A stretch of 64,000 nucleotides of DNA from a virus (IMGVR_UViG_3300046028_008994), one strand, 5' to 3'. Numbered from the stretch's first letter, positions 495 to 21,284 are shown. Numbers and translations are program-made. The notes: generated by a model from the sequence alone, not told the origin.

Positions 495-851
495 ATGAAA
501 CTAACAGATTTAAGAAAACTAATTCTAGAAGAATTAGCAAATATCCAAGAAGAAGCACACATCCCAGTAGATGAAATTGGTAAATTTTTTGTAGTTAAAA
601 AACCTAAAAAAGGTATGACTAAAGAAAATATGGTTCAAGAAGCTACTGTTTTTGATGATATTAAAGCAGAAGAAACATTGGGTGTTTATAAAAATAAATC
701 TGAAGCAAATCGTTTAGCTGGTGAAGCATTAAAATCATTTGAAGATCAACTTAAAGAAGTTGAAACATCAATGGAAGAATATAGAAGTGCTCAAAAAGCT
801 ATTAAAGAAAAAGCTGAGGAAACAAAAGCAAAAATCAAAAAAATAAAATAA
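495..851 (+). CDS. putative internal virion protein with N-terminal tag (MKLTDLRKLILEE)
   Basis: Shared amphipathic N-terminal motif, late motif upstream, coiled-coil C-terminus. Confidence 0.5.
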   Translation: MKLTDLRKLILEELANIQEEAHIPVDEIGKFFVVKKPKKGMTKENMVQEATVFDDIKAEETLGVYKNKSEANRLAGEALKSFEDQLKEVETSMEEYRSAQKAIKEKAEETKAKIKKIK

Positions 852-860
852 TTTTAAATT

Positions 861-885
861 AAGCTTGGAAAACCAAGCTTTTTTT
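861..885 (+). terminator. intrinsic terminator
   Basis: AAGCTTGG-AAAA-CCAAGCTT followed by a T-run. Confidence 0.8.
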
Positions 886-893
886 ATTATATT
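864..893 (+). promoter_or_regulatory. Bacteroidota sigma70-like promoter for primase
   Basis: CTTG(864-867)-N20-TATATT(888-893); same spacing at three other sites. Confidence 0.55.
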
Positions 894-899
894 AAGGTT

Positions 900-1829
900 A
901 TGTTAAATCAACCTTTAATAGCTTTGGTTAATTCTGTATTAGGAACAGGTAAATCTACTTCTAGAGGAAATTATGCATATCATTGTCCTTTTTGTAATCA
1001 CCATAAACCAAAACTAGAAATTAATTTTAACGAAAATGAAAAGGGTGAAAATCCTTGGCATTGTTGGGCATGTGATAAAAAAGGTAAAAAAGCATATCAA
1101 GTTTTAAAACTATCCCCATTATCACCTGAAATAATATCAGAATTAAAATCACTTACTAAAGGAGGATTCTCAGAAAAACAAATAACAGTAGAGGAAAAAG
1201 TAGAACTACCTAAAGAATATAAATCACTATTGAATATTAGTCAATTAAATATTATAGGTAGACATGCATTATCATACTTAAAATCTAGAAATATATTAGA
1301 AGAAGATATAATTAAATATAATATGGGTTATTGCGATTCAGGACCATATGCTAATATGATAATTATTCCTTCATACGATGCAAATGGTAAATTAAATTAT
1401 TTTACAGGACGTTCATTTAAAAAAGATTCATTTATAAAATATAAAAACCCAACAGTATCACGTGATATAATTCCTTTTGAATTATATATAAATTGGGAAT
1501 TACCAATTATATTGTGTGAAGGACCATTTGATGCAACAACAATTAAAAGAAATACTATCCCACTACTAGGTAAAAATATACAATCTAATTTAATGAAGAA
1601 AATTGTAAAATCTAGTGTTGACAAAATATATATCGCCTTAGACAGGGATGCTCAAAAACAAGCCTTGAGTTTTTGTGAAAAGCTAATGTCTGAAGGTAAA
1701 GAAGTTTATCTAGTAGATATGCAAGATAAAGACCCAAGCGAAATGGGTTTTGAAAACTTTACAAAATTAATTCAAGACACTTATCCATTAACCTTTTCTA
1801 GTTTACTAGGAAAAAAACTAACATTATGA
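900..1829 (+). CDS. DNA primase (zinc finger + TOPRIM)
   Basis: CPFC...HCWAC zinc finger; CEGPFDA and IALDRDA TOPRIM motifs. Confidence 0.92.
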   Translation: MLNQPLIALVNSVLGTGKSTSRGNYAYHCPFCNHHKPKLEINFNENEKGENPWHCWACDKKGKKAYQVLKLSPLSPEIISELKSLTKGGFSEKQITVEEKVELPKEYKSLLNISQLNIIGRHALSYLKSRNILEEDIIKYNMGYCDSGPYANMIIIPSYDANGKLNYFTGRSFKKDSFIKYKNPTVSRDIIPFELYINWELPIILCEGPFDATTIKRNTIPLLGKNIQSNLMKKIVKSSVDKIYIALDRDAQKQALSFCEKLMSEGKEVYLVDMQDKDPSEMGFENFTKLIQDTYPLTFSSLLGKKLTL

Positions 1830-2605
1830 TAGACAAAAACTCAAATATTATCCATGATCCTAAAATTAAACGAATTATACAATATAGTTCTGATAATAAA
1901 CAAATTAACGTATTAGATCAACGTTTTTACAGACGAAACGAGGAATATTATCCTTCAGTATCTAGTATATTAAACTATTTTCCTAAAAATAAATTTTTTC
2001 ACGATTGGCTTAAAGATGTAGGTCATAATAGTGAAATTATTGCTCAAAAAGCAGCATGGGAAGGTACACAAGTACACAATGCTATTGAACATTTTCTTAA
2101 TGGAAATGAATTAAGTTGGATTGATGAGGATGGAAATGCTTTATACGGTTTAGAAATTTGGAAAATGATATTAAAATTTGCTGATTTTTGGAATACACAT
2201 AAACCAGAACTAATAGCAACAGAATATCATTTATTTTCAGATGAATATAAATTCGCAGGTACTGCAGATATTATATGTAGAATAGCAGGAGTATTATATT
2301 TATTAGATATTAAAACATCAAATTCAATTCATAATTCATATAATTTACAACTAGCAGCCTATGCTCAAGCATGGAATGAAACACATAGTGAAAAAGTAAC
2401 AGATACAGGTATAGTATGGTTAAAAGCAGCTACACGAGGTCCTGCTAAAGATAAAATTCAAGGTAGTGGATGGCAATTAAAACAAATAGGTAATATAGAA
2501 CATAATTTTAATATGTTTACTAAAATATATGATATTTTTAAAATGGAAAATCCTGACTACAAACCATTAACTCAAACACTCCCAACTACTATTAAAATAT
2601 CATAA
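1826..2605 (+). CDS. PD-(D/E)XK exonuclease (Cas4/RecB-like)
   Basis: PSVSSIL, GTQVH, AGTAD...LLDIKTS, YNLQLAAY motifs; ATGA overlap with primase. Confidence 0.88.
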   Translation: MIDKNSNIIHDPKIKRIIQYSSDNKQINVLDQRFYRRNEEYYPSVSSILNYFPKNKFFHDWLKDVGHNSEIIAQKAAWEGTQVHNAIEHFLNGNELSWIDEDGNALYGLEIWKMILKFADFWNTHKPELIATEYHLFSDEYKFAGTADIICRIAGVLYLLDIKTSNSIHNSYNLQLAAYAQAWNETHSEKVTDTGIVWLKAATRGPAKDKIQGSGWQLKQIGNIEHNFNMFTKIYDIFKMENPDYKPLTQTLPTTIKIS

Positions 2606-2620
2606 TTTATTTTTTTCATT

Positions 2621-2630
2621 AATATTTATA
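2621..2630 (+). promoter_or_regulatory. late-gene motif AATATTTATA
   Basis: 4 nt upstream of ATG 2635. Confidence 0.7.
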
Positions 2631-2634
2631 ATTA

Positions 2635-3730: not shown

Positions 3731-4264
3731 ATGAATTACAATATTAGAGAAGACGAAGATAATCAATCATCATCAATACGCTTAGATCAAGATCTTATTT
3801 TAACAACAACAGAAAATATTCAAAAAGTCGTAGATGCCTTAGAAAATATTGATAATTATGGAATATATTTATCAAATATTAGAAAACCAAATACTAATAA
3901 AGCAATAGAAGATTATTTTGGTCCATCAAATCCTTCAAAAAAGAAAACAGCATTAAAAGCAAGAGGAGGAGAACCATTTCCTCTTAGAACAAAACAATCA
4001 GTAGATGATTTTATCAAATCACTAACCAGTAAACCTAATTTATTAGATTATAAAGTAGAAGGTAATACTATTATATTTCCTAAAGAATCAAATGAAACAA
4101 AAGAAAATATAAAAAGAATAATTGATACTGTTATGAAAAGTGCTGGCATTACTAAATATAAATTAATTAAAAAAGAAAGTGGTAGTTCTATAGAAGAAGG
4201 TAGAAAAATAAAACAAATCCGCCAGTTTATTAGAGAAGAAATCAAAAACATTATAAATAAATAA
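3731..4264 (+). CDS. hypothetical protein with tag-like C-terminus (IKQIRQFIREEIKNII)
   Basis: ORF in operon; C-terminal copy of the shared motif. Confidence 0.6.
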   Translation: MNYNIREDEDNQSSSIRLDQDLILTTTENIQKVVDALENIDNYGIYLSNIRKPNTNKAIEDYFGPSNPSKKKTALKARGGEPFPLRTKQSVDDFIKSLTSKPNLLDYKVEGNTIIFPKESNETKENIKRIIDTVMKSAGITKYKLIKKESGSSIEEGRKIKQIRQFIREEIKNIINK

Positions 4265-5475: not shown

Positions 5476-6192
5476 ATGGAAAAATTTGATTACAAAAAAT
5501 TCTTAACTGAAAATAAATTAACCAAGGCCTCAATATTAAGAGAAGGTTTTGGTGCTTATGAATATGAAGAAGGTAAAGCTGAAGGTAAAGCCGAAGAAAA
5601 ACAAAAAATGACCAAAGAAGAATTTAAGCAAAAAATCAAAGAAATGATTATTGCTGAGTTAGATGGTGCTGCAATAACAGAAGGACCAGATGATGAAGAT
5701 TATGAAAAAGCAGGTCGTGAAGTAGAATACGGTATTAATCCAAATGATGAAAAACTTGATTTCAAAGACTTCTTTAATGATGATGAAATGATGGATGATG
5801 AAATGATGGATGATGAAGAAGAATTATCATATGATATACCTGGTTTTGAAGGAACTAGAGATGCATTAAGTGCTCTTAAAATTAGAGAAGCTAAAAAAAA
5901 GAAAAAAGAAGATACTCCTGAAGAAGATATAAATCTTGATTTAGGTGAAGAAACACCAGAAGGTGAAGAAAATTTAGATATTAATTTTAGTGGAGATAAT
6001 GCAGAACCTACAGATAATTTCAATATTGATACAAGTGCTGTAGATCCTAATATTAAAGCTGTTCAAGATGCTTTAACACAAGCACAAGCCGCAGCTGAAA
6101 AAATTCAAGATGAAAAATTAACACAACAAATTGGTAATACAATTACAATGTTTACTCGTACTCACATTGCTAATAAAGAACCAATTCGTTAA
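5476..6192 (+). CDS. acidic putative prohead core/internal protein
   Basis: MEKFDYKKFLTE N-terminus resembles the T4 capsid-targeting peptide; D/E-rich; many [ILV]xE sites. Confidence 0.5.
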   Translation: MEKFDYKKFLTENKLTKASILREGFGAYEYEEGKAEGKAEEKQKMTKEEFKQKIKEMIIAELDGAAITEGPDDEDYEKAGREVEYGINPNDEKLDFKDFFNDDEMMDDEMMDDEEELSYDIPGFEGTRDALSALKIREAKKKKKEDTPEEDINLDLGEETPEGEENLDINFSGDNAEPTDNFNIDTSAVDPNIKAVQDALTQAQAAAEKIQDEKLTQQIGNTITMFTRTHIANKEPIR

Positions 6193-6221: not shown

Positions 6222-6395
6222 ATGAACACAACAGAGTTATTAGAAAAAATCGAGTCATTATTAGTAGAATTAAAAGTGGAAAACGCTAAAACTACTAAAG
6301 CTGCTCATGGTCGCGCACGTAAAATTGCAGGTGAAGTTAAAGCTTTAGCTAACGACTATAGAAAAGCTTCAATTGCTGAAGACAAAGCAAATTAA
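6222..6395 (+). CDS. histone H1-like (Hc1-type) small DNA-binding protein, 57 aa; missing from the ORF track
   Basis: MNTTELLEKIESLLVELKVENAKTTKAAHGRARKIAGEVKALANDYRKASIAEDKAN; KAA.xRARK...(Y/F)RKAS signature; TAATG overlap with the next gene. Confidence 0.75.
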   Translation: MNTTELLEKIESLLVELKVENAKTTKAAHGRARKIAGEVKALANDYRKASIAEDKAN

Positions 6396-7468
6396 TGAAC
6401 AAAACCCAACTTAAAACAGTAATTAGAGAGTTCTTATCTGAAGATAAGGGCTCTCCTGTTATTGATGATAAGTACAAAAACACATTTTTAAATAAACGCC
6501 AAGAATATATCAATGCGTTATTAAAAAATAAAAAGAATTTAGTAAAACGTTATGGTAAAGATGCTGAAAAAGTATTAGTAGGTAGAGCAATTAAAGACGC
6601 TAAAAAATATATAGAAGACATGAAACAACAAGACATAAAAGAATTAGTAAGAAAACAATTAACAGCTGAATCAGAGTCAATAAACTCTAAACAATACATC
6701 TCAGAAAGAGAAGAAAATCCAGAAGATAAAATTACTATGGATGTTCCTTTATTTATTCGTATGTTAGAATATGCTCGTGAAGATGCTAGTACTGATGTTG
6801 ATTTACACGATGTTGCTAAAAAAGCAATCGGTTTAAGTAGTGAAGATAAAACATTAACTATGGATGACTATGAAACTATTATTGGTGAAATGGAATCATT
6901 AAATGAAGATGATTGGAAACAAGCGGATGATGAGTCTGATATGGCTGATTCACAATTAAAATCAATTCAATCAAATGCTTCTAAATTAATGAATATGATT
7001 GATAACAATGAGCAATTAGATGCTTGGGTACAATCTAAATTAACTAAAGCACAAGATTATTTACAATCTGTTAGTGATTATTTAACAGGTGAAGAAGGTG
7101 AAGTTGAAGAACTTTACGAGAAAAAAGCAAAAAAAGATTATGATGGGGATAATAAAATAGAATCACCTGAAGAAGAATACAAAGGAGTAAAAGATAAAGC
7201 TATTAAAAACGCAAAAGGATTAGCAAAAACTATTGCTAAAAAATTAAAAGAATCTAGTTATAAAGCACCTTCAAATTCAAAAGAAGCTCAATATTTAAAA
7301 AAAGGAGACGTTATAGGTAGTGGAGAAACAGTAGTTTCTGTATCATCGGGTGCATATACTCCAGGTGGAAAAGTTGATGTTACATTAGAAAAAGGCGGTA
7401 AAACTAGAACAGCTGTTTGGGGTAAATCTACTAAAATAGGTGTTAAAAAACCAGAAGACATTAAATAA
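6395..7468 (+). CDS. tagged modular (polyprotein-like) putative internal protein
   Basis: MNKTQLKTVIREFLSE tag; modules ITMDVPLFIRMLEYARE, LDAWVQSKLTKA, KDYDGDNKIE separated by ISE/LNE/LYE/LKE. Confidence 0.55.
   Translation: MNKTQLKTVIREFLSEDKGSPVIDDKYKNTFLNKRQEYINALLKNKKNLVKRYGKDAEKVLVGRAIKDAKKYIEDMKQQDIKELVRKQLTAESESINSKQYISEREENPEDKITMDVPLFIRMLEYAREDASTDVDLHDVAKKAIGLSSEDKTLTMDDYETIIGEMESLNEDDWKQADDESDMADSQLKSIQSNASKLMNMIDNNEQLDAWVQSKLTKAQDYLQSVSDYLTGEEGEVEELYEKKAKKDYDGDNKIESPEEEYKGVKDKAIKNAKGLAKTIAKKLKESSYKAPSNSKEAQYLKKGDVIGSGETVVSVSSGAYTPGGKVDVTLEKGGKTRTAVWGKSTKIGVKKPEDIK
6426..6455 (+). other. 13-bp RNA hairpin inside CDS, 30 nt after the Hc1 stop
   Basis: GAGAGTTCTTATC-TGAA-GATAAGGGCTCTC (two G-U pairs). 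Confidence 0.6.
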
Positions 7469-8950: not shown

Positions 8951-9595
8951 ATGCATAATTTAAAAGAATTAATAAGAAAAGTGCTATCAGAGACCTCTAA
9001 AAAACCAGATTGTGGTTGTGGTTGTAAGGGTACTGCTAAGTGTTTTGATGCACCTATATTAAATGAAAGTTTAAAAGCGCGTATTGTTATGACTGAAAAT
9101 ATGCAATACCATATAGACGCTAAAACACCGCTATTTGAAACAACTTTACCATACGGTTCAAAAGAATATTTAAATTTATGGGCTGAAGCAAGATACTTAT
9201 ATTCTCGTGGTGCTTTAAATGTTGAAGGTATTGATAAAGAAAAAATTACTGAAACTAACTTGGGTGAATATGGAATATATGAAGGTAAAAAAGTACCTTT
9301 AGACTTACCAATGCCTGATAATGATATATTAACCGAGGCAGAATACCAAGGTCGTAAAGTAACTTTAGGTAAACCAATGCAGGGTGATGTTAAGAAATTC
9401 AAAGTATATGTTAAAAATGATAAAGGTAATGTAGTAAAAGTTAACTTTGGATTTGGTGGTAAATCAGCTAAAGGTAAAAGAATGGTAATTAAGGATAAAA
9501 ATCCTAAAAGACGTGCAGCCTTTAGAGCAAGACACAATTGCAAAAACCCAGGTCCAAGATGGAAAGCTCGTTACTGGTCTTGTAAAAAATGGTAA
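8951..9595 (+). CDS. tagged modular protein with basic Cys/His C-terminal module
   Basis: MHNLKELIRKVLSE tag; CGCGC; LTE|AEYQGRKV...AFRARHNC...RYWSCKKW. Confidence 0.6.
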   Translation: MHNLKELIRKVLSETSKKPDCGCGCKGTAKCFDAPILNESLKARIVMTENMQYHIDAKTPLFETTLPYGSKEYLNLWAEARYLYSRGALNVEGIDKEKITETNLGEYGIYEGKKVPLDLPMPDNDILTEAEYQGRKVTLGKPMQGDVKKFKVYVKNDKGNVVKVNFGFGGKSAKGKRMVIKDKNPKRRAAFRARHNCKNPGPRWKARYWSCKKW

Positions 9596-9596: not shown

Positions 9597-10070
9597 ATGA
9601 ATACATCTGAATTACAACAACTTATTAGAGAAATACTTTCTGAAAAAAAAGTAAAACGAGACAGATGTCTTCGTATTGCTGATCGTAAGTTTGATAAACC
9701 ATCAGCTTACAAATCAGGAGCTGTTGTAAGATGTCGCGCTGGAAAAATTTGGAAAGATATAAAAGAAACAGACGATCCTCAATCAGGTAAAGCAGCACCA
9801 TATGGATCAGGATATGCTAAGGTTGAAGAAGAATTAATTCTTGAAAAAGTAAAAGAAACACTTAGAACTTGGTTTTCTCGTAAAGGTGCTCCTGGTAAAA
9901 CAGGTGGGTGGGTTGATTGTAATGCTCCAATTAGAAAAGATGGTAAAATAACTGGTTACAAACCTTGTGGAAGACAAAAAGGCGAAAAACGAGCATATCC
10001 AGCTTGCAGACCAACTCCAGCAGGATGTAAAGCAAAAGGTAAAGGTACTAAATGGGGTAAAACAAAATGA
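9597..10070 (+). CDS. tagged modular protein of short basic Cys-rich modules (start revised to 9597)
   Basis: MNTSELQQLIREILSE tag; DPQSGKAAPYGSGY module; GGWVDC..PCGR..YPACRP. Confidence 0.6.
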   Translation: MNTSELQQLIREILSEKKVKRDRCLRIADRKFDKPSAYKSGAVVRCRAGKIWKDIKETDDPQSGKAAPYGSGYAKVEEELILEKVKETLRTWFSRKGAPGKTGGWVDCNAPIRKDGKITGYKPCGRQKGEKRAYPACRPTPAGCKAKGKGTKWGKTK

Positions 10071-11089
10071 TAAAACTATTAGATATATTAAATGAGGTTT
10101 TATCTGAAAATGATCCTAAAAAAGGAACAGGTAAAAAACCTAAAGGATCAGGTCGTCGTTTATACACAGATGAAAATCCAAAAGATACTGTATCTATTAA
10201 ATTTAAAACTAAAGAAGATATAGTTGATACATTAAATAAAGATTCATTTAAATCTAAACCACATGCTCGTCAATCACAAATTATTAATTTAATTCATCAA
10301 CGAGTAAGAGCAGCATATGGTAAAGCAAAAGATCCTGAAGTAAAATCTAGATTAAAACGTGCTTTAGATTATATTGAAAAACGTAAAGAATCATCTAAAG
10401 CTAAAACACAACGTTTAAATAAAGTAAAAGAAACAGCAGACCCACAATCAGGTAAAGCAGCACCATATGGTTCTGGTTATGCTCCTGTTAAAAATAAAAA
10501 TATAAATGAGTTAAGACAAGGTCTTTTAGATTATTTAAAACAACAACTTCCAAATTTCCCTGATTATGTTATAAAGGATTGGATTTATAAAATGATTAAA
10601 AAAGATGATAATATCAACACAGCCGAAGGTATTCAGGATTGGATTGATAGTCAACTTAAAGATTTAAAATGGGAGACTAAGACAAACTTTCCTATAACAA
10701 TGGATATTTTTGGTAATAAAACTCAACAAGAATTAAAATCAAGAATTGGAGGGGAAATTAGACAAGATGTAGGTAAGGATATTGAAAGACACAATACACA
10801 ACAAAAATTATTAAAAAGTCAAGGAATATCTAAAGAACCTATTATTATATTTAAAACTAAAGATGGTAAATATGAATTAGGAGAAGGCTGGCATAGAACT
10901 ACACAAGCATTTAAAATGTATCCTGAAGGTTTTATTCAACCTAATGTTTATATTGGTTTAAATGCTAAATGGTTAAATGAAATGTTAGAAGAAGATATAC
11001 TTACTGAAAAATGTTGGAAAGGATATACTCAAAAAGGTATGAAAACAATGTTTGGTAAAAAATATCCAAATTGTGTAAAAATAAAATGA
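10067..11089 (+). CDS. tagged modular protein with ParB/Srx-like domain
   Basis: MIKLLDILNEVLSE tag; EPIII...YELGEGWHR ParB-like motif; terminal KCWKGY...PNCVK module. Confidence 0.6.
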   Translation: MIKLLDILNEVLSENDPKKGTGKKPKGSGRRLYTDENPKDTVSIKFKTKEDIVDTLNKDSFKSKPHARQSQIINLIHQRVRAAYGKAKDPEVKSRLKRALDYIEKRKESSKAKTQRLNKVKETADPQSGKAAPYGSGYAPVKNKNINELRQGLLDYLKQQLPNFPDYVIKDWIYKMIKKDDNINTAEGIQDWIDSQLKDLKWETKTNFPITMDIFGNKTQQELKSRIGGEIRQDVGKDIERHNTQQKLLKSQGISKEPIIIFKTKDGKYELGEGWHRTTQAFKMYPEGFIQPNVYIGLNAKWLNEMLEEDILTEKCWKGYTQKGMKTMFGKKYPNCVKIK

Positions 11090-11412
11090 TAAAATTATTA
11101 GATATATTAAAAGAAGCTAAAAAACTTAAAGAAACTTTTGAGGAATTTGCTAAAAAACGTGGTGAAGGTGCTGCTAAAATAGCTTCAAATGCTGAAGAAA
11201 AAGGTGGTTTAGCATTATTAACTTGGCACCACTTTAAAGTTAAAGCTCCTTATTATAAAAAAGCAACTAACGGTAAATTTGATAAAGAAGTTGCTACAAA
11301 AGAATTTGAACAAACACTTAAAAAAATATCTTTAAACATGACACCAATTGAATTTCAAAGAGAAGTTGGTCGTTTAGAGGTATTAGGTGAATTACTAATA
11401 AGAGAAAAATAA
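11086..11412 (+). CDS. tagged small protein (start revised to 11086)
   Basis: MIKLLDILKE tag; ATGA overlap with the upstream gene. Confidence 0.6.
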   Translation: MIKLLDILKEAKKLKETFEEFAKKRGEGAAKIASNAEEKGGLALLTWHHFKVKAPYYKKATNGKFDKEVATKEFEQTLKKISLNMTPIEFQREVGRLEVLGELLIREK

Positions 11413-12067: not shown

Positions 12068-12394
12068 ATGATCAAGTTTATAGACATCATTCGTGAATCA
12101 ACAAATCCTAACATATATTTAGTATATTGTAGAATTGTTGTTAACAGTGATGCAAGACCCATGCAAGAAATATTATCGGATATTAGAGCTATTCCTGGTG
12201 TTACTATTGTAGATATAGTAGATGCTGATGATGAAACACACGGTATAAGACACGTTGTTGATCTTAGCTTAAAAATTGATCCATCTCCATTTGAACCATT
12301 TGATGGAAAATCTTATTCAAAAATATTAGCAGGTATCAAAAGAATACCATCTATATACACAGCCAAATTTACATCAACTCCAACAACAGTATAA
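12068..12394 (+). CDS. tagged small protein, possible ferredoxin-like (ACT/Lrp-type) fold
   Basis: MIKFIDIIRE tag; ILSDIRAIPGVTIV pattern. Confidence 0.55.
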   Translation: MIKFIDIIRESTNPNIYLVYCRIVVNSDARPMQEILSDIRAIPGVTIVDIVDADDETHGIRHVVDLSLKIDPSPFEPFDGKSYSKILAGIKRIPSIYTAKFTSTPTTV

Positions 12395-12399: not shown

Positions 12400-15069
12400 A
12401 TGAGTTTAAAACAAACAACATCCCCAATATACAAATTTATAACACACGTTGCAAGTAATTTATATCCATTACTTGAATATGCAGAAAATGTAATATTAAA
12501 ATACATTGAAAAATTTAAAGAAGAAGCAGATGACTTAAATATAACAATATCAGATAATCAACTGAGAAAATACATTGAGCGTTTTGATCAAATAAAAAAT
12601 TCACCTAAAATTACTGATAAAGAATTACGTAATTACACTTTATCTCAATTAATAAAATTAATAACATCTTCTGAAGGTGTTAATAGTGGAGATGATGAGA
12701 TAGAAAACACACCAGATGTTGTTTATAATGAAGGTGGTAAAACTATATATAATGGTTCTAAAGAAGGTAATTGCCTACTGTATGGTAGGGGTGAAAGATG
12801 GTGTATTACTAGAGGATCATATGGTAATTATAGATATAGTAGAGATAGAGGATATCCAACATTTTATTTAGCTAAAAATGAAAATTTACCTAGCTCTAAT
12901 AAATTAAGTTTTGTTGCTATACAAGTTAGAGATACACCTCAGGAAACTAATAGATATGTTTATACTAATAGAGATAATAGTCCAAATGAATCATCACCTA
13001 TGGATTTTAGTAAACTAATGAGTGAAATTCCTTGGTTAGCAGATATTCCAAATATTAAAAATATATTAAAATACATTCCTTTAAAATCATCAGAAAAATT
13101 AAATCAACTATATAAAGACAACCCAATAAATATAAGAGAATGGCTAAAATTAGAATTTTCAGCTAAAAAACAATATCTTGTTGTTAGAAAAGGTAAAGAA
13201 ATGTTTGATGATGTTTCTAATAATGAGTTTATTTCTAAATACTTACCTAAATTTCCACAATTAGCTAATTTTATTGCTATTACTCCTGGTATTTTTGATA
13301 GTGATGAATTATTAAAAAATTTAGATAGCTTTTCAAGTAATGATAGAAGATCAGTTACTGCAAATTTACAAAATTCTATAAGTTTAAATTATTTACCAAA
13401 AGATTTTTTCTCATTTGATGTTAAAAAATTAATAACTACTTTAAAGAAATGGGATATTAATGGTGATCAAAGAATATATATTACTGAAGATGGTAGTACA
13501 ATTGTATTATTAACTTTAGGTGAAAATATTAGAATGGGTTTATATCAAGCAGATGATGATTATCCTAATGTTAAATTAAATAAAAGAACATCCAAATACT
13601 TATTAGAATACCCTGAATTAGATAAAATCCCCTTTCAGAACTTAATAGATTTAGCATCTGAAGGTGTTGTTGATAAAAGTGTATTAGGTGCTGTTTTAGA
13701 ACAAGCAAAAACAAATCCAAATTCGTCAATTGTTGTTAAAGAAATAGATGGTAAACAAATCTTAATAGATGCAAATTCATTTCTTTCTTATAAAATAGAA
13801 GGAGATACAATAACTAGAGTTCCATTTAATGACGAAGATGTACAAACAGCATTTGCACAAGAAGAAAATAATAAAGGATTTCAAGAATCAGCATTAAATA
13901 TATTTAAAAATGAAGAAGATATTCCAGGAACTATAAATAAGGAAGGTTTAGCATCAATTGTTAATGCAACACCATACAATGAAAGAACATTCACAACAGA
14001 AGAGACTAATGGCCCGGCTGTATTATTAACAATACCAGGTGATGAAGCCCCAAATTTCTTTACAATTAATACAAATGGTGGAACTAACTCTTATTTAATA
14101 ATGCCAACTGTGTATATTGGTAGTAATAATAATTGGAGACTTTTTAATAGAAATAGAAAGGCTGTTAGTAACTCTGAGCAAATACAAGCTATTATTAATT
14201 ACTTAAGAGGATCAGGTAAAACACTAAATGATGAATCATTATTAAATACTTTAAGAGCATCACAATATTATGAACCTGAAGTAGATATTGTTAAACAATT
14301 TGTACGATTAAACCCACCACTAGCAGCTGAAAATAGATACAGACCAGTAATATTTAATGATACATTACTTATTATTAATACTGCTAATCCAAGAGAAAGT
14401 TTACAACTTTCAGATAGAAGTGGTAAATTAGTTAAAGCTAATATATCACCTGCTCAAGCATCACGATTAATAGGTACTACGGCACCAGCAGCACAAGGGG
14501 CAGGTGAACGAGTAGCCACTCCAGTAGCAGGTACTGGTAGAAGAGGCAGACCAGCAGGCGTACCTAATGCTCCTGTAGCTCCAGCAGCAAACGTCCCAGC
14601 AGGTCAAGGTGAATCTGTAGCAGGAATTATGGCAAACTATGAATTAGGAAATGGATTTACTCAATTACCGGGTCGTTCATTTACTAGATTAAATACAAAC
14701 ACAGGAGTTGGACAACAAATAACTAATAATAGAGGTGCTACTCGTCGTAATAATTTATTAGGAAATAATGGTCGTGTAGTAAGAAACATTTCAGTAGGCC
14801 CAAGTGATATTTATATAATTAGATTAGCCAATGGTTCAAATGTAGCATCAGTTGTAGTACAACCAGGTAACTTACATTACTTAATTACTTCAACAAATGC
14901 TATCTCTTTAAATTCACCCGCTGAATTATTAAATGCTTTACAACAAAGAAATTTAGCAGAAGCAAGAGGATACATAATGAATGAATATTTAGAACGGAAT
15001 CCACAACATAAAAACGAATTTAAAGAATTAATTAAAAAAACCATAACCGAAAAACAAACCAACAAATAA
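12400..15069 (+). CDS. large multidomain putative internal protein with AT-hook
   Basis: GERWCITRG (PcfJ-like WC motif, tentative); GRRGRP AT-hook in a Pro/Ala linker; tag-like C-terminus EFKELIKKTITE. Confidence 0.55.
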   Translation: MSLKQTTSPIYKFITHVASNLYPLLEYAENVILKYIEKFKEEADDLNITISDNQLRKYIERFDQIKNSPKITDKELRNYTLSQLIKLITSSEGVNSGDDEIENTPDVVYNEGGKTIYNGSKEGNCLLYGRGERWCITRGSYGNYRYSRDRGYPTFYLAKNENLPSSNKLSFVAIQVRDTPQETNRYVYTNRDNSPNESSPMDFSKLMSEIPWLADIPNIKNILKYIPLKSSEKLNQLYKDNPINIREWLKLEFSAKKQYLVVRKGKEMFDDVSNNEFISKYLPKFPQLANFIAITPGIFDSDELLKNLDSFSSNDRRSVTANLQNSISLNYLPKDFFSFDVKKLITTLKKWDINGDQRIYITEDGSTIVLLTLGENIRMGLYQADDDYPNVKLNKRTSKYLLEYPELDKIPFQNLIDLASEGVVDKSVLGAVLEQAKTNPNSSIVVKEIDGKQILIDANSFLSYKIEGDTITRVPFNDEDVQTAFAQEENNKGFQESALNIFKNEEDIPGTINKEGLASIVNATPYNERTFTTEETNGPAVLLTIPGDEAPNFFTINTNGGTNSYLIMPTVYIGSNNNWRLFNRNRKAVSNSEQIQAIINYLRGSGKTLNDESLLNTLRASQYYEPEVDIVKQFVRLNPPLAAENRYRPVIFNDTLLIINTANPRESLQLSDRSGKLVKANISPAQASRLIGTTAPAAQGAGERVATPVAGTGRRGRPAGVPNAPVAPAANVPAGQGESVAGIMANYELGNGFTQLPGRSFTRLNTNTGVGQQITNNRGATRRNNLLGNNGRVVRNISVGPSDIYIIRLANGSNVASVVVQPGNLHYLITSTNAISLNSPAELLNALQQRNLAEARGYIMNEYLERNPQHKNEFKELIKKTITEKQTNK

Positions 15070-15070: not shown

Positions 15071-15517
15071 ATGAAAATTAAAGATTTAAGACAAATAATT
15101 AGAGAAGAAATCAAAAGTGTGTTGAGTGAAAATCAACCTGCTCCTGCTAAACCACGTGAAACCCCTGGTAGAGAAGTAGCTGAACCGGGAACTAAACCAG
15201 GTAAAGAGGAAAAACGTAGAAAATTAGGTAATCCTAATGTTAAACCAGCTCCTAAAGCTAAAGCTACACTTAAAGAAGCAGATATTATATCTAAAATTAC
15301 AAAAAGATTTAAAAGTAAACAAATGGATGAGCTTTTAACTTTGGGTGATGATAATGATTCCAAAAAATCAGATTCAAAAGCAAAACCTTTATATACTGAT
15401 AAAGAAATAGAGGCAATGACTCCACAACAAGCAAAAGCAGCCATTAATAAAGGAATATGGAATGTCCCAGCTAATTCAAATGTACTTAAAAAATTAAGAG
15501 AAAAATCAAAACAATAA
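15071..15517 (+). CDS. tagged protein with Pro/Lys-rich module
   Basis: MKIKDLRQIIREEIKSVLSE tag. Confidence 0.6.
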   Translation: MKIKDLRQIIREEIKSVLSENQPAPAKPRETPGREVAEPGTKPGKEEKRRKLGNPNVKPAPKAKATLKEADIISKITKRFKSKQMDELLTLGDDNDSKKSDSKAKPLYTDKEIEAMTPQQAKAAINKGIWNVPANSNVLKKLREKSKQ

Positions 15518-17235
15518 TGATTAATTTACTAGAAGCAGAATACGAAGATATTTTTCGTCCTGAAACAATGGCAGCCTTAAAAGGCAAATCAGGTGAATCA
15601 TTAAGACAAATGCTTGGAAACAAGGAATTAATGCAAACCCTTATAAGATCTAAAGAAGTATTAAATGACATAATAGCAGCAGAAAAAGGATATCATGATT
15701 TACTAGAAGGAATAGCAATAGAAATGGTAACTCAAGCTTATCCAATTATTGATTATGCTAATATTAAAATAGATGCTAAAATAGGAGGAGATATAGGTAG
15801 TGGAGAACCATCAGATGATGAACCTTCACTAGAAATTCCAGCAGAAGCCGAAAAAGCAAGACGTCGTATTATTAATGGTATTACTCAAGGTGCATCAATT
15901 AGAGGAGCATTTGCTTTTTATTTATTTAGAGAATATCTTGATATGATGGATGATACTTTAGTAGATAGATATAATGAAATATTAAAATTAGTATTTGGTA
16001 TATATGATGATGAAAATGCTATTGCTATGATGTTAGCTGCTTTAGCACAAGGTCAAAAAATGCAAGGTGGTGAAAGTGAAGTTGAATATGATGAAGAAAA
16101 TGAGCAATTTGTTATTAAAGCACGTGCACTTTGTTTTCCAATGTTAGTACATGAAATTGTAAAAGGATTGTATGAAATAGTAGGAACTGAAGGATTTGGA
16201 ACTGATAAAGAAAAAAATAAAGCTATTGTTGGTGCTGTAGATAAAGTATCAAATGAGCCTAACGATTTTCGATTCGGAAAATTCATATATGACGCGATAA
16301 CAAAGTTATATAATGAGAGTAACTTAGATGACAATAGAATACGTGAATTATTTTTTGCATCGCTATATAAACTAGGAGATGATGAATTTTTTCCATTTGT
16401 AGAAAATGCTGTTAATGATCAATTAACACCTGAACAAAAAAGATGGGCATTGGGTGAAATGAAAGATATTGAAAAAGATCTTAAAAAAGATGATACTGGT
16501 TTAAGTGGATTAGATGAAGGACAAATAGATGAAATAAAAGGAAAAAACATTGCTGTAGGTGATATTTTTACATTATCTGCTGATTTGGGTAAATTTAAAA
16601 ACGGAAATAAAGTTAGAGTATCATCAAAAACCCCATCCGGTGGTGATATTAAATTAATATTATCTAGTATTGATGGTAAAATTAAAGACATATTTTTCTT
16701 AGATAAAAATGATGAATTTGAAGGTCTAGATGAAAATGAAAATAATGAACTTGAAGGATCTAATGAACCGGCTCCAACCCCATCAACCCCACCAGGTGAA
16801 ATTAGTGCTGAAGAAGCTAAACGTTTAATAAAAGATACAAACGGTAAAATTTTCACAGCAACATTTAATAAAAAGGATGGTACTGAAAGAGTAATGAATG
16901 CTCGTTTAGGTGTAAAAAAATATTTAAAAGGAGGAACATTAGCTTATGACGCTGAATCTAAAGGTTTAATTCCTGTTTATGATATGCAATATAAAGAAAA
17001 TCCAGAAAAAGCATATAGAACAATTAATGTTAATACACTTACTAAATTAAAAATAGGAAAAAATATATATACAGTAACATCTTCAGTAACAGAAAATACT
17101 ATCGTTGAAGGTAAAGCAAAAGAACTATTTGATGAAATACTTGAATTAATAAGAAAACGTACTCGTGAGATGAATGATGATGACGCTTTTGAATTTCATG
17201 AAAAATTAAAAACTTGGATTAATAAGTTAATATAA
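15517..17235 (+). CDS. tagged multidomain protein (helical domain + SH3/WYL-like modules)
   Basis: MINLLE; LVHEIVKG; IFTATFNKKDGTERVMNARLG...VYD...YRTIN SH3-fold pattern; modules bounded by LDE/IDE/VTE. Confidence 0.55.
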   Translation: MINLLEAEYEDIFRPETMAALKGKSGESLRQMLGNKELMQTLIRSKEVLNDIIAAEKGYHDLLEGIAIEMVTQAYPIIDYANIKIDAKIGGDIGSGEPSDDEPSLEIPAEAEKARRRIINGITQGASIRGAFAFYLFREYLDMMDDTLVDRYNEILKLVFGIYDDENAIAMMLAALAQGQKMQGGESEVEYDEENEQFVIKARALCFPMLVHEIVKGLYEIVGTEGFGTDKEKNKAIVGAVDKVSNEPNDFRFGKFIYDAITKLYNESNLDDNRIRELFFASLYKLGDDEFFPFVENAVNDQLTPEQKRWALGEMKDIEKDLKKDDTGLSGLDEGQIDEIKGKNIAVGDIFTLSADLGKFKNGNKVRVSSKTPSGGDIKLILSSIDGKIKDIFFLDKNDEFEGLDENENNELEGSNEPAPTPSTPPGEISAEEAKRLIKDTNGKIFTATFNKKDGTERVMNARLGVKKYLKGGTLAYDAESKGLIPVYDMQYKENPEKAYRTINVNTLTKLKIGKNIYTVTSSVTENTIVEGKAKELFDEILELIRKRTREMNDDDAFEFHEKLKTWINKLI

Positions 17236-17239: not shown

Positions 17240-18049
17240 ATGATTAGTTTAGTTGAAATTTTAAAGGAATTAGGACAGCGTAAGCATTACACTGAAAGAA
17301 AATTTCAACGAACAAATATATCTAGAATAAAAATCCCTGATGAAGCTTATGGTGGTTATGATGTCAAAGAAACTAACATTAAATTAATAAGTATTTTAAA
17401 AAAAGAAATACTTGATAGATTGAATAATCTAGAAAAAATAAATATAGTATCGTCCTTTAAATATTATGTTGGATATAGAGTATTTAAACCAATATTAATT
17501 AGTAATGGTAAAAAATATCCTATTGTTATGTATGTAGATTATCAAGAAAAAAATAAAGAAAGAAAAAAATACGGAGATTTATATTATGCTGTAGTAAATA
17601 AAGATGAACTTATTACCTTAATTTTAAGTAGTGATATTAGTAATACTGAATTAGAACATAGAATAGCACATAATCTTGAAATAGAACAAGAAATTCGTAA
17701 TGCTAATGTTAAAATTATAGAATCATCAAATTATGATTATATTATAGATCTTGATAAATTATATGGAAAAAGTCAACAAGTAAATAAAACACCGTCAAAA
17801 GACTCAGTAGAATACAAAGTTAATATGGCTTATAGAAAAGATACTAGTTTTAATCATAAAATTTATGGAGAAGGAGTAGTAGTAGATACATCAAATGGAA
17901 AAGCGGGAATGGGAGATGCTAGAGGAAAATTAGATTGGGTAGATGTAGATTTTAAAAACTCAAAACCAGTACTTAAAGGAGGAAAATTAACAACAATAAA
18001 AAGAATATCTCCAGTATATACTAAAAAATATTTTGATAATCTCCAATAA
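17240..18049 (+). CDS. tagged protein, possible nuclease/toxin-like domain
   Basis: MISLVEILKE tag followed by HYTERKFQR (H-x-x-E-R-x-x-x-R). Confidence 0.5.
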   Translation: MISLVEILKELGQRKHYTERKFQRTNISRIKIPDEAYGGYDVKETNIKLISILKKEILDRLNNLEKINIVSSFKYYVGYRVFKPILISNGKKYPIVMYVDYQEKNKERKKYGDLYYAVVNKDELITLILSSDISNTELEHRIAHNLEIEQEIRNANVKIIESSNYDYIIDLDKLYGKSQQVNKTPSKDSVEYKVNMAYRKDTSFNHKIYGEGVVVDTSNGKAGMGDARGKLDWVDVDFKNSKPVLKGGKLTTIKRISPVYTKKYFDNLQ

Positions 18050-18055: not shown

Positions 18056-18065
18056 CATATTTATA
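18056..18065 (+). promoter_or_regulatory. late-gene motif CATATTTATA with no downstream ORF before the terminator
   Basis: Matches the motif; next ATG lies beyond a strong terminator. Confidence 0.6.
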
Positions 18066-18159
18066 ATTAAATAAACTACAGAACAGATTTATAGCCTGTT
18101 CGATTAAACAAAAATTTTAAGAGAGCTGTAACCTCAATTTTGGGTTACAGTTTTTTTTT
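18066..18159 (+). ncRNA. candidate ~90 nt small RNA
   Basis: Bounded by the late motif and a terminator; no ATG; hairpin GAACAG(18081-86)/CTGTTC(18096-101). Confidence 0.45.
18125..18159 (+). terminator. intrinsic terminator
   Basis: CTGTAACC/GGTTACAG stem followed by T9. Confidence 0.88.
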
Positions 18160-18167
18160 CGTATATT
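18139..18167 (+). promoter_or_regulatory. Bacteroidota sigma70-like promoter for the oxidoreductase
   Basis: TTTG(18139-42)-N19-TATATT(18162-67). Confidence 0.55.
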
Positions 18168-18177
18168 AATATAAAGT

Positions 18178-19518
18178 ATGGATAAAAAAATAGTAATTAT
18201 AGGAGCCGGTGTAGCAGGTATTAATGCTGCTACTAAATTAGTAGATAATGGTTATCCTGGAGAGTTAATCACAATTATCGATAAAGGTAATGACCCACAT
18301 AACCGCTTACCTGAAGAGGTAATGACAGGTATGTTAGGAGCTGGAGGATGGTCAGATGGTAAATTAACTTACCACACAGAAATCGGAGGTCAATTAGCAA
18401 AATATTGTGGTGAGGAAAAAGCTATGGAATTGATGGATCAAGTTATTAGTAACTTTAGACGTTTCCACCCAAAACCAGAAGAAATATTTATGTCAGATCC
18501 ACAAACAGAACCTGATTTTATTAAACCATATTTTGGTTTAAGAATGTTTCCTGTATGGCATATAGGTTCAAATTATTTACATGAAATTGCTAAAGCATGG
18601 TATCAATATTTAGTTGATAAAGGAGTAGATTTTCATTGGGGGACTGAAATAATTAAGATTGATTTTAATAATGATGATCCTCTATTTACTGGAGGAACAT
18701 GTTATGGTAAATGGATAAACGAAAAAGGAGAACATTTTGATACTCACCATTATGATACTTTAATATTTGCAGTAGGCAAATCAGGTATTGATTTTGCTCA
18801 AAAATTAGCTAATGATTATAAATTACCTAATGAACCTAAATCAGTTCAAATTGGAGTACGTTTTGAAGCACCACAAAAATATTTTCAAAAATTAATTGAT
18901 ATAAGTTATGATTTTAAACTATATCAGAAGTTTGATAATGTATCTTTAAGATCATTCTGTACTAACAATAATGCAGCTTATGTAGCTGTTGAAGAAACAT
19001 ATGGTGATATTAGTTACAATGGTCATGCTAAAAAAGGTGAGGAATTTAGAAACGATATGACCAATTTTGGTATTTTAATGGAAATTAAAGGTATTGAAAA
19101 TCCGTTTGAATGGTCAAGAAAGGTAGTAGAATCATGTCAAGCCAATAAAACAGGATTATATTACTCACCTAATATGACTCGTAAACCAGGATTAACATCA
19201 GAAGGTACAACAGTATCAGCTTGGGAAATATCTGAACATTCACTAGATAATATTAGAAATGCTATGGGTGGTTATTTTGAACATATAGAAAAATTCATTG
19301 AAGATATGAATAAAATATTTGAATTTGGAGATGATTGGGGAATGTATATTCCTGAAGTAAAATACTTATCTCCTGAACCATTAGTAAATTACACAGATTT
19401 ATCATTAAATGAATATCCAAATGTACATTTTGTAGGTGATGCTTTATCAGCGCGCGGGATAACTGTTAGTGGTGCACATGGAATTTATGTAGCAGAAAGT
19501 TTGGTAAATAAAAATTAA
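18178..19518 (+). CDS. FAD-dependent oxidoreductase (uncharacterised dehydrogenase family)
   Basis: IVIIGAGVAG Rossmann motif, GAGGWSDGKL, RSFCTN, HFVGD...RGITVSG. Confidence 0.85.
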   Translation: MDKKIVIIGAGVAGINAATKLVDNGYPGELITIIDKGNDPHNRLPEEVMTGMLGAGGWSDGKLTYHTEIGGQLAKYCGEEKAMELMDQVISNFRRFHPKPEEIFMSDPQTEPDFIKPYFGLRMFPVWHIGSNYLHEIAKAWYQYLVDKGVDFHWGTEIIKIDFNNDDPLFTGGTCYGKWINEKGEHFDTHHYDTLIFAVGKSGIDFAQKLANDYKLPNEPKSVQIGVRFEAPQKYFQKLIDISYDFKLYQKFDNVSLRSFCTNNNAAYVAVEETYGDISYNGHAKKGEEFRNDMTNFGILMEIKGIENPFEWSRKVVESCQANKTGLYYSPNMTRKPGLTSEGTTVSAWEISEHSLDNIRNAMGGYFEHIEKFIEDMNKIFEFGDDWGMYIPEVKYLSPEPLVNYTDLSLNEYPNVHFVGDALSARGITVSGAHGIYVAESLVNKN

Positions 19519-19529
19519 TTTCGTATATT
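19500..19529 (+). promoter_or_regulatory. Bacteroidota sigma70-like promoter
   Basis: TTTG(19500-03)-N20-TATATT(19524-29), 6 nt before ATG 19536. Confidence 0.55.
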
Positions 19530-19535
19530 ATAATT

Positions 19536-19595
19536 ATGAGTAAAAAGTTTGAAGCAAGTAAATTTTACAACTGGGAAGATTTTTATATTTTATAA
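19536..19595 (+). pseudogene. orphaned 5' gene fragment (MSKKFEASKFYNWEDFYIL*)
   Basis: Follows a promoter; KFEASK aligns with KWKPSR at the start of ORF 20259, on the far side of the HNH gene. Confidence 0.4.
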
Positions 19596-19617
19596 TATTT
19601 ATTAATAAATAAAATAT

Positions 19618-20295
19618 ATGAATTATAAAAAACATTATAATAATTTAATAGAAACTAGAAGAAATAGAGTTTTAGATTTAAATCAATATTATGAAAAACA
19701 CCATATAATACCAAAATGTATGGGTGGAACAAATGATAAAGAAAATATAATTAAATTAACAGCAAGAGAACATTTTATAGCTCATTGGTTGTTATATAAA
19801 GAATATAAAAATAAATCATTAGCTGCTGCCTTTTGGAGAATGTGTTTTAATGGTAATAAAAATATGAGAAGATATATACCATCATCTAGGACATATGAAG
19901 AAGCTAGATTAAATTATATAAAAGAATATAAAGGTAAACCTAAGCATACTGAGGAAAGTAAAAGAAATATAGGATTAAAAAATCAAAAACCTAAACCTAA
20001 AGAATATGGCATTAATTTGAGTAAATTAATGAAAGAAGGTTTAGCTGAAAAAATTGGAAAAAGTAACAAAGGTATAAGTAGGGGAAAAAATAGAAAAATA
20101 AGTTGGAATGTGGGTAGAAATAAATCTCTTTTTATACAATATGACATAGAAGGAAATATTATTAAAGAGTGGGATGGATTGGAAGAATTAAAAAAAGAAT
20201 TTAGTATATCATCTATATATAATTCATTTAAAAATAATAAAATATATAAAAAATCAATATGGAAAATAATAAGTGGAAACCTTCGAGAAAATTAA
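19618..20295 (+). CDS. free-standing HNH homing endonuclease with NUMOD-like DNA-binding tail
   Basis: EKHHIIPKCMGGTNDKENIIKLTAREHFIAH; KHTEESKRNI; IQYDIEGNIIKEW. Confidence 0.9.
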   Translation: MNYKKHYNNLIETRRNRVLDLNQYYEKHHIIPKCMGGTNDKENIIKLTAREHFIAHWLLYKEYKNKSLAAAFWRMCFNGNKNMRRYIPSSRTYEEARLNYIKEYKGKPKHTEESKRNIGLKNQKPKPKEYGINLSKLMKEGLAEKIGKSNKGISRGKNRKISWNVGRNKSLFIQYDIEGNIIKEWDGLEELKKEFSISSIYNSFKNNKIYKKSIWKIISGNLREN

Positions 20296-20510
20296 CTAAG
20301 GCTGATGGAACAATAGCATATATTTGGGAAAACTGTTTGCATAGCTGGGAAGGACCAGCTTTAATACCTGAGGGTGATAATCGTAAAAGAGAATATTATA
20401 TTCATGGTATAAAATATAGTGAAGATGCTTGGAAAGAAGCTCGTAAAAATAGACAGGGTCTTCCATGGTATAAACAATCAGCTAATAAAGGAGGAACAAA
20501 TAGGTTTTAA
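20259..20510 (+). CDS. small hypothetical protein
   Basis: LHSWEGPALI...EYYIHG repeat-like motif; overlaps the HNH 3' end. Confidence 0.65.
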   Translation: MENNKWKPSRKLTKADGTIAYIWENCLHSWEGPALIPEGDNRKREYYIHGIKYSEDAWKEARKNRQGLPWYKQSANKGGTNRF

Positions 20511-20511
20511 T

Positions 20512-21036
20512 ATGAAAATAGGATTATGTGGAACAGTAAGTGTAGGAAAAACTACACTTGTAAATGCGCTTAAGGAATTACCTGAATTTGCTGATTATGA
20601 AATAGCAACTGAGCGTTCAAAATATTTAAGAGATCAAGGTATTGCTTTAAATAGTGATTCAACTTTTAAAGGTCAATTAGTATTTGCTGCTGAACGTTCA
20701 TTAGAATTAATGAAAGAAAATATTATAACTGATAGAACAGTTTATGATGTTAGTGCTTTTACATTAAGTGCCAAATCTATTGAGTGGTGGATTAGAGAAA
20801 CATTTGTTCAATTAATAATGCAATTACATAAAGAATATGATGTTATAATTTATGTATCTCCTGAAGGTATTGAAATTGAAGATAATGGAGTTAGAACTAC
20901 TGACTCAGAATACAGAGATAAAATAGATAAAGTTATTAAGGAAATGTTAGTAGAATGGACTCCTGTTAAATTAATTGAGGTAAAAGGTACTACTGAAGAT
21001 AGAATAACAACCATTAAAGAGGCACTATTTTCATAA
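20512..21036 (+). CDS. P-loop nucleoside/nucleotide kinase-like ATPase (NadR/AAA_28 type; start revised to 20512)
   Basis: MKIGLCGTVSVGKTTL Walker A; ITDRTVYD; EDNGVR. Confidence 0.8.
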   Translation: MKIGLCGTVSVGKTTLVNALKELPEFADYEIATERSKYLRDQGIALNSDSTFKGQLVFAAERSLELMKENIITDRTVYDVSAFTLSAKSIEWWIRETFVQLIMQLHKEYDVIIYVSPEGIEIEDNGVRTTDSEYRDKIDKVIKEMLVEWTPVKLIEVKGTTEDRITTIKEALFS

Positions 21037-21047
21037 TATTTATGGTC

Positions 21048-21284
21048 ATGAAAAAATCTGACCTAAAACTAGAAATTAAAAAATATATTTCAGAAATATT
21101 ATCTGAAGACGTAAATGAGGCTATTGGTGCTGAAATTACAGGTAAAACAGGTAAGAAAACAGTAGCGTCTTTTTCAAATACAAAAGATATGACTGATTTT
21201 AAATCTAAAAACCCAAACATTGCTAGTGTAACACCATTAGAAGAAGATAAGTCTAAAATAATCAAAAAATTAAGAGGAGAATAA
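21048..21284 (+). CDS. tagged small protein (start probably 21048)
   Basis: MKKSDLKLEIKKYISEILSE; motif variant AATATTTATG at 21035-44. Confidence 0.55.
   Translation: MKKSDLKLEIKKYISEILSEDVNEAIGAEITGKTGKKTVASFSNTKDMTDFKSKNPNIASVTPLEEDKSKIIKKLRGE

Follow-up and report, generated by a model that had tools for sequence, protein, structure and literature searches.

Positions 495–21,284 of a 64,000-nucleotide stretch of viral DNA (IMGVR_UViG_3300046028_008994), the whole of which is referred to below as the window, contain an array of otherwise unrelated open reading frames (ORFs), about a dozen of which begin with a short amphipathic leader ending in hydrophobic-[L/I]-x-Glu. The most economical reading of these leaders, which we consider moderately probable, is that they are lineage-specific propeptides of the kind that target the internal proteins of bacteriophage T4 to the capsid. 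By analogy with T4, the phage probably packages many swappable proteins. That the array products would be present in the virion, cleaved and injected is what we infer, and the injection and anti-defence roles would be extrapolations from T4.

The window is part of a phage contig of 28% GC, with every gene, and every feature placed in the window below, on the + strand. The source is an uncultured T4-like lake phage, the host of which probably belongs to the Bacteroidota. The closest cultured phage is Flavobacterium phage immuto, with a major capsid protein that is 53% identical; its whole genome, joined from four pieces, served as an independent test set. Genes are named by their start position in the window, and arrows in peptide sequences mark the point of cleavage, which is predicted for all proteins other than those of T4.

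Leaders of the array genes

Leaders were detected with an 8-column position-specific scoring matrix (PSSM) and with plain regular expressions, both with positional controls. A home-made expectation-maximization motif finder of the zero-or-one-occurrence-per-sequence type was tried on the first 30 residues and dropped, as it over-fitted and drew in most proteins. Between positions 495 and 21,284 a strong N-terminal leader was found on 11 ORFs, a third leader type on one more, and weak leaders on three or four others. Every N-terminus quoted in the earlier note on this DNA is present in the sequence at its start, and all three leader types in the array terminate in the same way. The start codons are well defined: several, among them those of 10067 and 11086, overlap the upstream stop as ATGA, and others lie 2–16 nt past a late-type motif.

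The type A leader is exactly ten residues long, M-I-[KS]-[LF]-x-[DE]-I-[LI]-x-E. It heads 10067 (MIKLLDILNE, then VLSE; 10067–10108), a basic ORF of 340 residues; 11086 (MIKLLDILKE↓A; 11086–11115), a basic ORF of 108 residues; 12068 (MIKFIDIIRE↓S; 12068–12097), another ORF of 108 residues, where the late motif ends 2 nt upstream; and 17240 (MISLVEILKE; 17240–17269), a basic ORFan of 269 residues. A short, weak version (MINLLE↓A; 15517–15534) begins the 572-residue ORF 15517, which has a C-terminal WYL_2/SH3-like domain.

The type B leader has 13–22 residues, M..[ST][DE]L..[LIV]I[RK]E, usually followed by a second site [IVF]LSE. Its six members are 495 (MKLTDLRKLILEE; 495–533), an ORF of 118 residues where the late motif ends 3 nt upstream and the leader is kept in the immuto orthologue; 6395 (MNKTQLKTVIREFLSE; 6395–6442), of 357 residues; 8951 (MHNLKELIRKVLSE; 8951–8992), of 214 residues with a C-terminal HVA1-like basic domain; 9597 (MNTSELQQLIREILSE; 9597–9644), where a DUF5872-like basic Cys-rich body follows; 15071 (MKIKDLRQIIREEIKSVLSE; 15071–15130), a basic Pro/Lys-rich ORF of 148 residues with the highest PSSM score; and 21048 (MKKSDLKLEIKKYISEILSE; 21048–21107), an ORF of 78–80 residues just before the TerL operon genes, the relatives of which have ...EILSE. 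The type C leader, MEKFDYKKFLTE, occurs in the array in 5476 alone (5476–5511), an acidic scaffold-like ORF of 238 residues with weak similarity to the scaffold gene 29394, and is found in four copies in immuto. Further weak candidates that were absent from the earlier note are 6222 (MNTTELLEKIESLLVE; 6222–6269), a basic ORF of 57 residues, 2635 and 7468.

As that note had proposed, the tagged ORFs are otherwise unrelated, with almost no mutual similarity between their bodies in an all-against-all BLAST; eight of the proteins have isoelectric points of 9.1–10. Except for the pair 10067/11086, where 27 of the 30 leader bases are shared, the leaders encode the same residues by different codons. 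The peptide is therefore what is conserved. The C-terminal copies reported for 3731 (residues 162–177) and 12400 (residues 873–889) are real, but weaker, at 12–14 bits in the PSSM. In 3731, SIEE↓G is followed by the helix copy KIKQIRQFIREEIKNIINK (4187–4261), and in 12400 the last 34 residues, past NLAE↓A, include EFKELIKK (14950–15066); each is a possible C-terminal propeptide.

To quantify the distribution of the leader, a plain motif was used, [ILVFMY][LIV]xE with the Glu at residue 6–24, and the same motif at residues 31–49 served as the control. The gene sets of this contig were taken from a 94.7-kb record of the genome, for which database rows also list a form of ~172 kb; replication genes were tested in immuto instead. 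The motif was found in 12 of 27 array genes (44%), 5 of 9 head-module genes (56%) and 5 of 67 other genes (7%) of this contig, and in immuto the corresponding values were 12/21 (57%), 5/10 (50%) and 21/183 (11%). Array and head module taken together differ from the rest in both phages (17/36 versus 5/67, Fisher p = 6e-6, in this contig; 17/31 versus 21/183, Fisher p = 3e-7, in immuto). In the control interval the motif occurs in about 10–15% of proteins. The narrower pattern [ILVFYM][LI]SE occurs 14 times in 112 proteins, with 7 occurrences within the first 25 residues versus 1.3 expected. The tail, baseplate and fibre genes of the contig carry no leader, and the untagged genes of the array encode GIY-YIG and HNH homing endonucleases, a DnaG-like primase, a PD-(D/E)XK nuclease and an FAD oxidoreductase. 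The motif thus passes the check set out in the earlier note, that the tag should be absent from replication and outer structural proteins, and the outcome named there as damaging, an equal frequency on non-virion genes, was not observed (7% elsewhere versus 44% and 56%).

Correspondence with the T4 tag and its protease

A 1996 study by Mullaney and Black reportedly dealt with the capsid-targeting sequence (CTS) of T4's internal proteins. In T4 the CTS is carried by the internal proteins IPI, IPII and IPIII, by Alt and by gp24, and is removed by the gp21 protease (PMC3012670, PMC9026906, PMC5694885); Alt also has a C-terminal propeptide (PMC5694885). The internal proteins of T-even phages are diverse, with the CTS as their sole shared part, and the CTS may be a general loading route in T4-like phages (PMC3012670, PMC9026906). 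In mutagenesis of the T4 CTS, residues 4 and 7 affected targeting and residues 8 and 10 processing (PMC9026906).

We compared the leaders with T4 proteins as retrieved sequences, the relevant termini being MKTYQEFIAE↓A in IPII and IPIII, MAKINELLRE↓S in gp24, ...FLTE↓A at the cut of gp23 and MLKEQLIAE↓A in gp22. A register pattern was derived exclusively from residues 4–10 of IPII and IPIII (hydrophobic, x, [DENQ], hydrophobic, [LIV], x, E). This pattern, which recovers T4 IPII, IPIII and gp24, begins exactly at residue 4 in 10067, 11086, 12068 and 17240, versus 0.1 expected. The same start is seen in two proteins of immuto and in 12 from related contigs; in type B leaders the pattern is present a few residues later. 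Constraint within the 11086 family falls on the same positions: among 51 distinct leaders, residues 4, 7, 8 and 10 are limited to L/F, I/L, L/I/V and E, respectively, and residues 5, 6 and 9 are free. A comparable scheme holds for the 9597 family (2947 homologues), ...[LI]-I-x-E-[VI]-L-x-E, where x is free and the Glu residues are near-invariant. With MKTYQEFIAE itself the leaders have the class pattern alone in common, and a peptide of 10 residues is too short for descent to be demonstrated. The shared register and (L/I)-x-E end support reading the leader as a modular tag like the T4 CTS. In three records of marine T4-like phages (Kyanoviridae), many ORFs begin with peptides near the T4 CTS (MKTFKQFMSE, MQGFKTFLSE, MKKFSELTSE, MKNFKNHIAE and MKKFKQYIDE).

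The head module follows the array in the order TerL (21905), portal (23498), four small genes, protease (28420), scaffold-like gene (29394) and major capsid protein (30483). The gp21 homologue claimed at 28420 was borne out: the protein (28420–29028) is a prohead protease of the T4 gp21 family that matches PF03420 (Peptidase_S77) with E = 1.3e-28, far better than S80 (E = 0.0012). Its His and Ser align with those of T4 gp21, and the Asp of the xWDxV motif is retained. The N-terminal VLIE-7↓T of the protease matches LIE-9 of T4 gp21 (T4 site: PMC9026906). The acidic scaffold-like protein (29394–30455) starts MTNRDLLKE↓A, resembling ...LIAE↓A of T4 gp22, and contains five [LIVM]xEA sites. In the major capsid protein (30483–32216) the predicted maturation site LVTE-60↓T (30651–30662) aligns with LTE-65↓A of T4 gp23 and LRE-10↓S of gp24, and is LV[TVM]E in 17 relatives. 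The protein encoded directly upstream of the protease (27193–28416) has a conserved [ILV][ILV]xE near residue 55 (ILSE, 27346–27357), which lies behind a conserved N-domain of 50 residues and is kept in 27 relatives. The leader ends ILSE, VLSE, FLSE, ILKE and IIRE fit the same likely rule as the termini of capsid protein, scaffold and protease. Sites of the form [LIVM]xEA show a clear rise in the head module (10 observed versus 3.9 expected, with five in the scaffold and three in 27193) and a modest one in the array (11 versus 6.9), which lends weak support to the propeptide reading.

Another head-module gene, 26274 (26274–26834; 186 residues), has homologues in relatives that open with a type B leader. 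Its residues 5–31 are 52% identical to residues 55–81 of the capsid protein, the predicted mature N-terminus of the capsid just past LVTE-60.

The same rule recurs inside 8951. Its C-terminal ~80 residues (9332–9592) form a basic domain (phrog_7595; one record is annotated 'HVA1 family') that is preceded by ILTE↓A (9326–9340), a predicted protease site. In phages Kolga, CRP-901, CRP-3 and HTVC106P the HVA1-like domain is free-standing, with 79–85 residues and the start M-A-x-Y-x-G, and PF03420 was not found in any of these four records. In four T4-like phages the domain has an N-terminal extension, with L-x-E↓[AG] exactly where the free-standing form begins: ILTE↓A in this phage, ELTE↓A in C48C1, ELDE↓G in immuto and PLEE↓A in HTVC008M. 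The marine T4-like phage C48C1 has the protease (1.2e-40), and its extension opens with the T4-like leader MKKFKQYIDE.

An exhaustive profile search placed the HVA1-like domain in 3500 representative proteins, and the junction was analysed in the best 150 of these, 147 of which have extensions of 44–730 residues. Across the 147 junctions, which come from diverse relatives, the position three residues before the cut (P3) is L in 86, I in 36, V in 14, M in 10 and T in 1; P2 is occupied by 18 different residues; P1 is E in all 147; and P1′, just past the cut, is A in 145. An aliphatic P3, a free P2 and a fixed Glu are what characterizes the cleavage rule of T4. The N-terminal motif is present in 65 of 144 HVA1-domain proteins (45%), versus 11% in the control interval. 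The domain is always C-terminal and stands behind hundreds of different N-terminal parts; its free-standing forms begin M-A at the junction, so that removal of the Met would yield the same N-terminus as a cut.

For 9597 the predicted cut is ILSE↓KKVKRDRC. CRP-901 has the DUF5872-like body as an ORF of 54 residues starting MPAKKPKRDAC, the start of which coincides with the predicted mature end (P1′) of the 9597 body. In phages that lack an S77 protease the leader is missing from the same cargo domains, in a small sample. The tag would appear to be both lineage-specific and portable, the cargo domains having the lineage's own leader in this phage, MKKFKQYIDE in a marine T4-like phage and none where the protease is absent.

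Taken together, the array would encode late-expressed, mostly ORFan and often small basic proteins with an amphipathic helical propeptide of 10–22 residues. Through its hydrophobic face (residues 4, 7 and 8 of the short form), the helix would dock each protein onto the scaffolding core during prohead assembly. The S77 (gp21-type) protease 28420 would then cut past hydrophobic-[L/I]-x-Glu, the rule by which it would also trim the capsid protein, the scaffold and itself, and the mature protein would remain in the head alongside the DNA. Additional sites, internal or C-terminal, would exist in some proteins; cleavage at ILTE↓A in 8951 would free the basic domain of ~80 residues.

In comparison with known systems, the T4 CTS is similar in being an N-terminal propeptide of 10–20 residues on unrelated proteins, hydrophobic at 4, 7 and 8, with Glu at 10 and an (L/I)-x-E end. 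Also in common are a head-module S77 protease, cargo that is often small and basic, hypervariable cargo loci and the possibility of both N- and C-terminal propeptides, as in Alt. The leaders here differ in sequence (MIKLLDILKE, ...LIREILSE and the type C leader, as opposed to MKTYQEFIAE), with at least four types in this lineage. The ~12–16 tagged genes here, as opposed to ~5 in T4, are clustered beside TerL in a single, putatively late array, and the host is probably a member of the Bacteroidota. Giant phages with an S80 protease (phiKZ, 201phi2-1 and SPN3US) also have many head proteins, ejection proteins included, that are cut past Glu by a gp21-related protease. However, their sites are S/A/G-x-E or A-x-E and their propeptides often exceed 100 residues, whereas P3 is aliphatic in 146 of the 147 HVA1 junctions. 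In phage P1 an N-terminal signal suffices to load the anti-restriction protein DarB into a myovirus head (PMC9024508), but the Dar proteins have no common consensus, described cleavage rule or array of tagged genes. The cargo-loading peptides of encapsulins are similar in that a short portable peptide sends diverse cargo inside an HK97-fold shell. They are usually C-terminal and uncleaved, in a system without protease, portal or DNA; the leaders here are N-terminal and the shell is a portal-bearing T4-type capsid.

Alternative explanations of the leaders

Several observations weigh against the leaders being capsid-targeting propeptides. TerL begins with MSQDLKAIIREEY (21905–21950), a look-alike of a leader that scores highly and is retained in each of the 79 TerL relatives. 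We rejected TerL as a tagged protein and regard it as a false positive of the PSSM, as the helix, which we take to lie inside T4 gp17 too, probably belongs to the ATPase fold; the motif alone is therefore not fully specific. A gene of 114 residues at −16376 to −16032 (~16.4 kb before the window start) has a long type-B-like leader, with the late motif 3 nt upstream, and is located directly before baseplate genes and conserved in immuto. A fourth leader type (type D, ...EF.R.Q.LAGIKE) occurs in the early region of the contig, outside the window, and leader-bearing genes are found in early or metabolic regions of immuto too. Some relatives of 8951 have no leader, and the Glu-Ala at the HVA1 junction could partly reflect the structure of the domain. 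These cargo domains also function in phages that have no such protease and so need not act from inside a capsid. The sample behind the co-occurrence of leader and protease is small (five S77 searches), the AlphaFold 2 model of 9597, built from 36 homologues, is poor (pLDDT 54), and our literature search found no virion proteome for immuto or this phage.

The tagged proteins might be accessories of the prohead core or scaffold, like T4 gp22, gp67 and gp68, that are targeted and cut but then degraded and expelled, rather than cargo. This would suit 5476 and 6395, which are acidic and weakly resemble the scaffold, the five and three [LIVM]xEA sites of the scaffold and 27193, and the leader on relatives of the head-module gene 26274. 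However, the tagged proteins are mostly basic, with few internal sites, and vary between phages, whereas an essential scaffold part would be conserved, and the tagged set includes folded domains known from other phages. We therefore consider such a role for the tagged proteins unlikely.

Alternatively, the leader may be a general N-terminal amphipathic helix unrelated to the capsid, used for oligomerization, for binding membranes or DNA, or as the recognition site of another phage factor. The motif is short, similar helices are present in TerL and in the gene beside the baseplate genes, and copies occur at C-termini and in the early regions of immuto, all of which fit this explanation. It leaves unexplained, however, that the Glu is invariant and P2 free, that the register matches the T4 CTS and that the site rule is the one of capsid and scaffold, as well as the restriction to array and head module and the loss of the leader in phages lacking S77. 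In addition, no candidate modifying enzyme tracks the array. A general helix accordingly seems improbable to us.

Shared N-termini could also be leftovers of duplication, or DNA homology for the shuffling of cassettes, with no role for the peptide. The region is hyperplastic (see below) and the leader bases of 10067 and 11086 are nearly the same, but in most leaders the same residues are encoded by different codons, the bodies are unrelated and conservation tracks residue class at positions 4, 7, 8 and 10, which makes this origin very unlikely. Finally, an effect of AT-rich composition or of codon bias at translation starts, conceivable for a genome of 28% GC since the codons of Lys, Ile, Leu, Asn and Glu are AT-rich, can practically be dismissed: the motif is found in 7% of the other genes of the same genome, the internal control is about 10%, and in Pelagibacter phage Kolga (30.5% GC, no S77 protease) the motif occurs in 3 of 57 proteins (5%), equal to Kolga's own internal control, so that AT-rich composition does not explain the excess.

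We thus retain the T4-like capsid-targeting propeptide as our preferred reading. The principle is already known from T4. Our literature search did not find the leader types, the ~12–16 tagged genes, the putatively late array on the TerL side, the host group or the HVA1 junction rule described. If the tags work as in T4, each genome would hold a dozen or more swappable packaged proteins, not three. The lineage is common in lakes and seas, with at least 599 TerL relatives in IMG/VR, and two of the cargo families have thousands of homologues each. If true, a large unexplored set of proteins would be delivered at the first moment of infection, which is when T4 counter-defence proteins such as IPI* act. 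The leader with its (L/I)-x-E end, together with [LIVM]-x-E↓A junctions, would provide a simple sequence rule by which proteins inside the virions of uncultured phages, with their mature ends, could be predicted. It would also supply new address tags with which foreign proteins could be loaded into Bacteroidota phages. The cultured immuto, on Flavobacterium sp. LMO8, makes the system directly testable; it has these leaders on the syntenic genes gp095, gp094, gp093, gp092, gp084, gp083, gp082, gp080, gp077 and gp076.

A wider proposition, which we put forward tentatively and regard as possible rather than probable, is that abundant aquatic T4-like phages use lineage-specific portable address peptides and one (L/I)-x-E↓A rule to load a large, fast-changing set of proteins delivered with the DNA. 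This set would include the widespread basic domain of ~80 residues, freed from hundreds of carriers at an invariant junction. The capsid would then be a general protein-injection device, with an effector repertoire across the virome far beyond the three internal proteins of T4.

Late motif, plasticity and payloads of the array

A late-type motif, ATATTTATAA, precedes the start codons of portal, head, tail and fibre genes by 2–24 nt. It is also found before 495, 2635, 5476, 8951 and 12068, with a copy 111 nt upstream of 18178, and these genes lead six tightly packed operons that span the array. The earlier note placed most tagged genes downstream of this motif; this holds in the direct sense for 495, 5476, 8951 and 12068, and the other tagged genes lie farther along the same operons. 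The extended form (A/T)ATATTTATAA occurs at 484, 2624, 5452, 8941, 12058, 23472, 27181, 35331, 38757, 45651, 49752 and other positions. These sites are without a Shine-Dalgarno sequence, and late transcripts may be almost leaderless.

In IMG/VR, 80 related loci have the leader in front of at least 16 unrelated body clusters, and several of these clusters are absent from this phage. Within 10 kb upstream of TerL in 11 relatives there are 65 gene clusters, 44 of them singletons, compared with 23 clusters on the head side. The array region is hyperplastic, like the loci for internal proteins in T-even phages. A SegE-like GIY-YIG endonuclease (33–482) and an HNH endonuclease (19618–20295) flank or interrupt the array, and mobile endonucleases in and around it are consistent with a hyperplastic region. 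The genes 9597 and 10067 share an internal stretch of 29 residues with 72% identity (9597–11089), and both C-termini have basic Cys-containing motifs that are present in cyanophage proteins too. As sequence similarities, the shared stretch and the C-terminal motifs suggest module shuffling among the cargo genes.

Searches of 30 proteins against Pfam and PHROGs gave almost nothing for the cargo. Among the payload labels proposed in the earlier note, the WYL_2/SH3-like domain of 15517 was recovered (Pfam 1.3e-4, which is below the family cut-off; PHROG 6.5e-19). The labels ParB-like, peptidase, nuclease-like and AT-hook found no Pfam or PHROG match at E ≤ 0.01, the HExxH string being confined to 2635 and RGRP to 12400. 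The ESM Atlas yielded no usable lead for 10067 or 17240, and a 'virion protein' label through a distant match to S-SCSM1 (35% identity over 63 residues) was too weak to use. The WYL_2/SH3-like domain of 15517 (residues 433–519) has a free-standing, leaderless copy of 93 residues, with 52% identity, among the early genes ~29.8 kb before the window start.

In immuto, HTVC008M and Melnitz, a deoxyribonucleotidase of the NT5C type has an N-terminal extension of ~20 residues before the catalytic DMDGVL motif. The NT5C-type genes lie in the same kind of array (L001 (immuto), 24857–25456; L090, 4995–5585; L088, 8948–9460).

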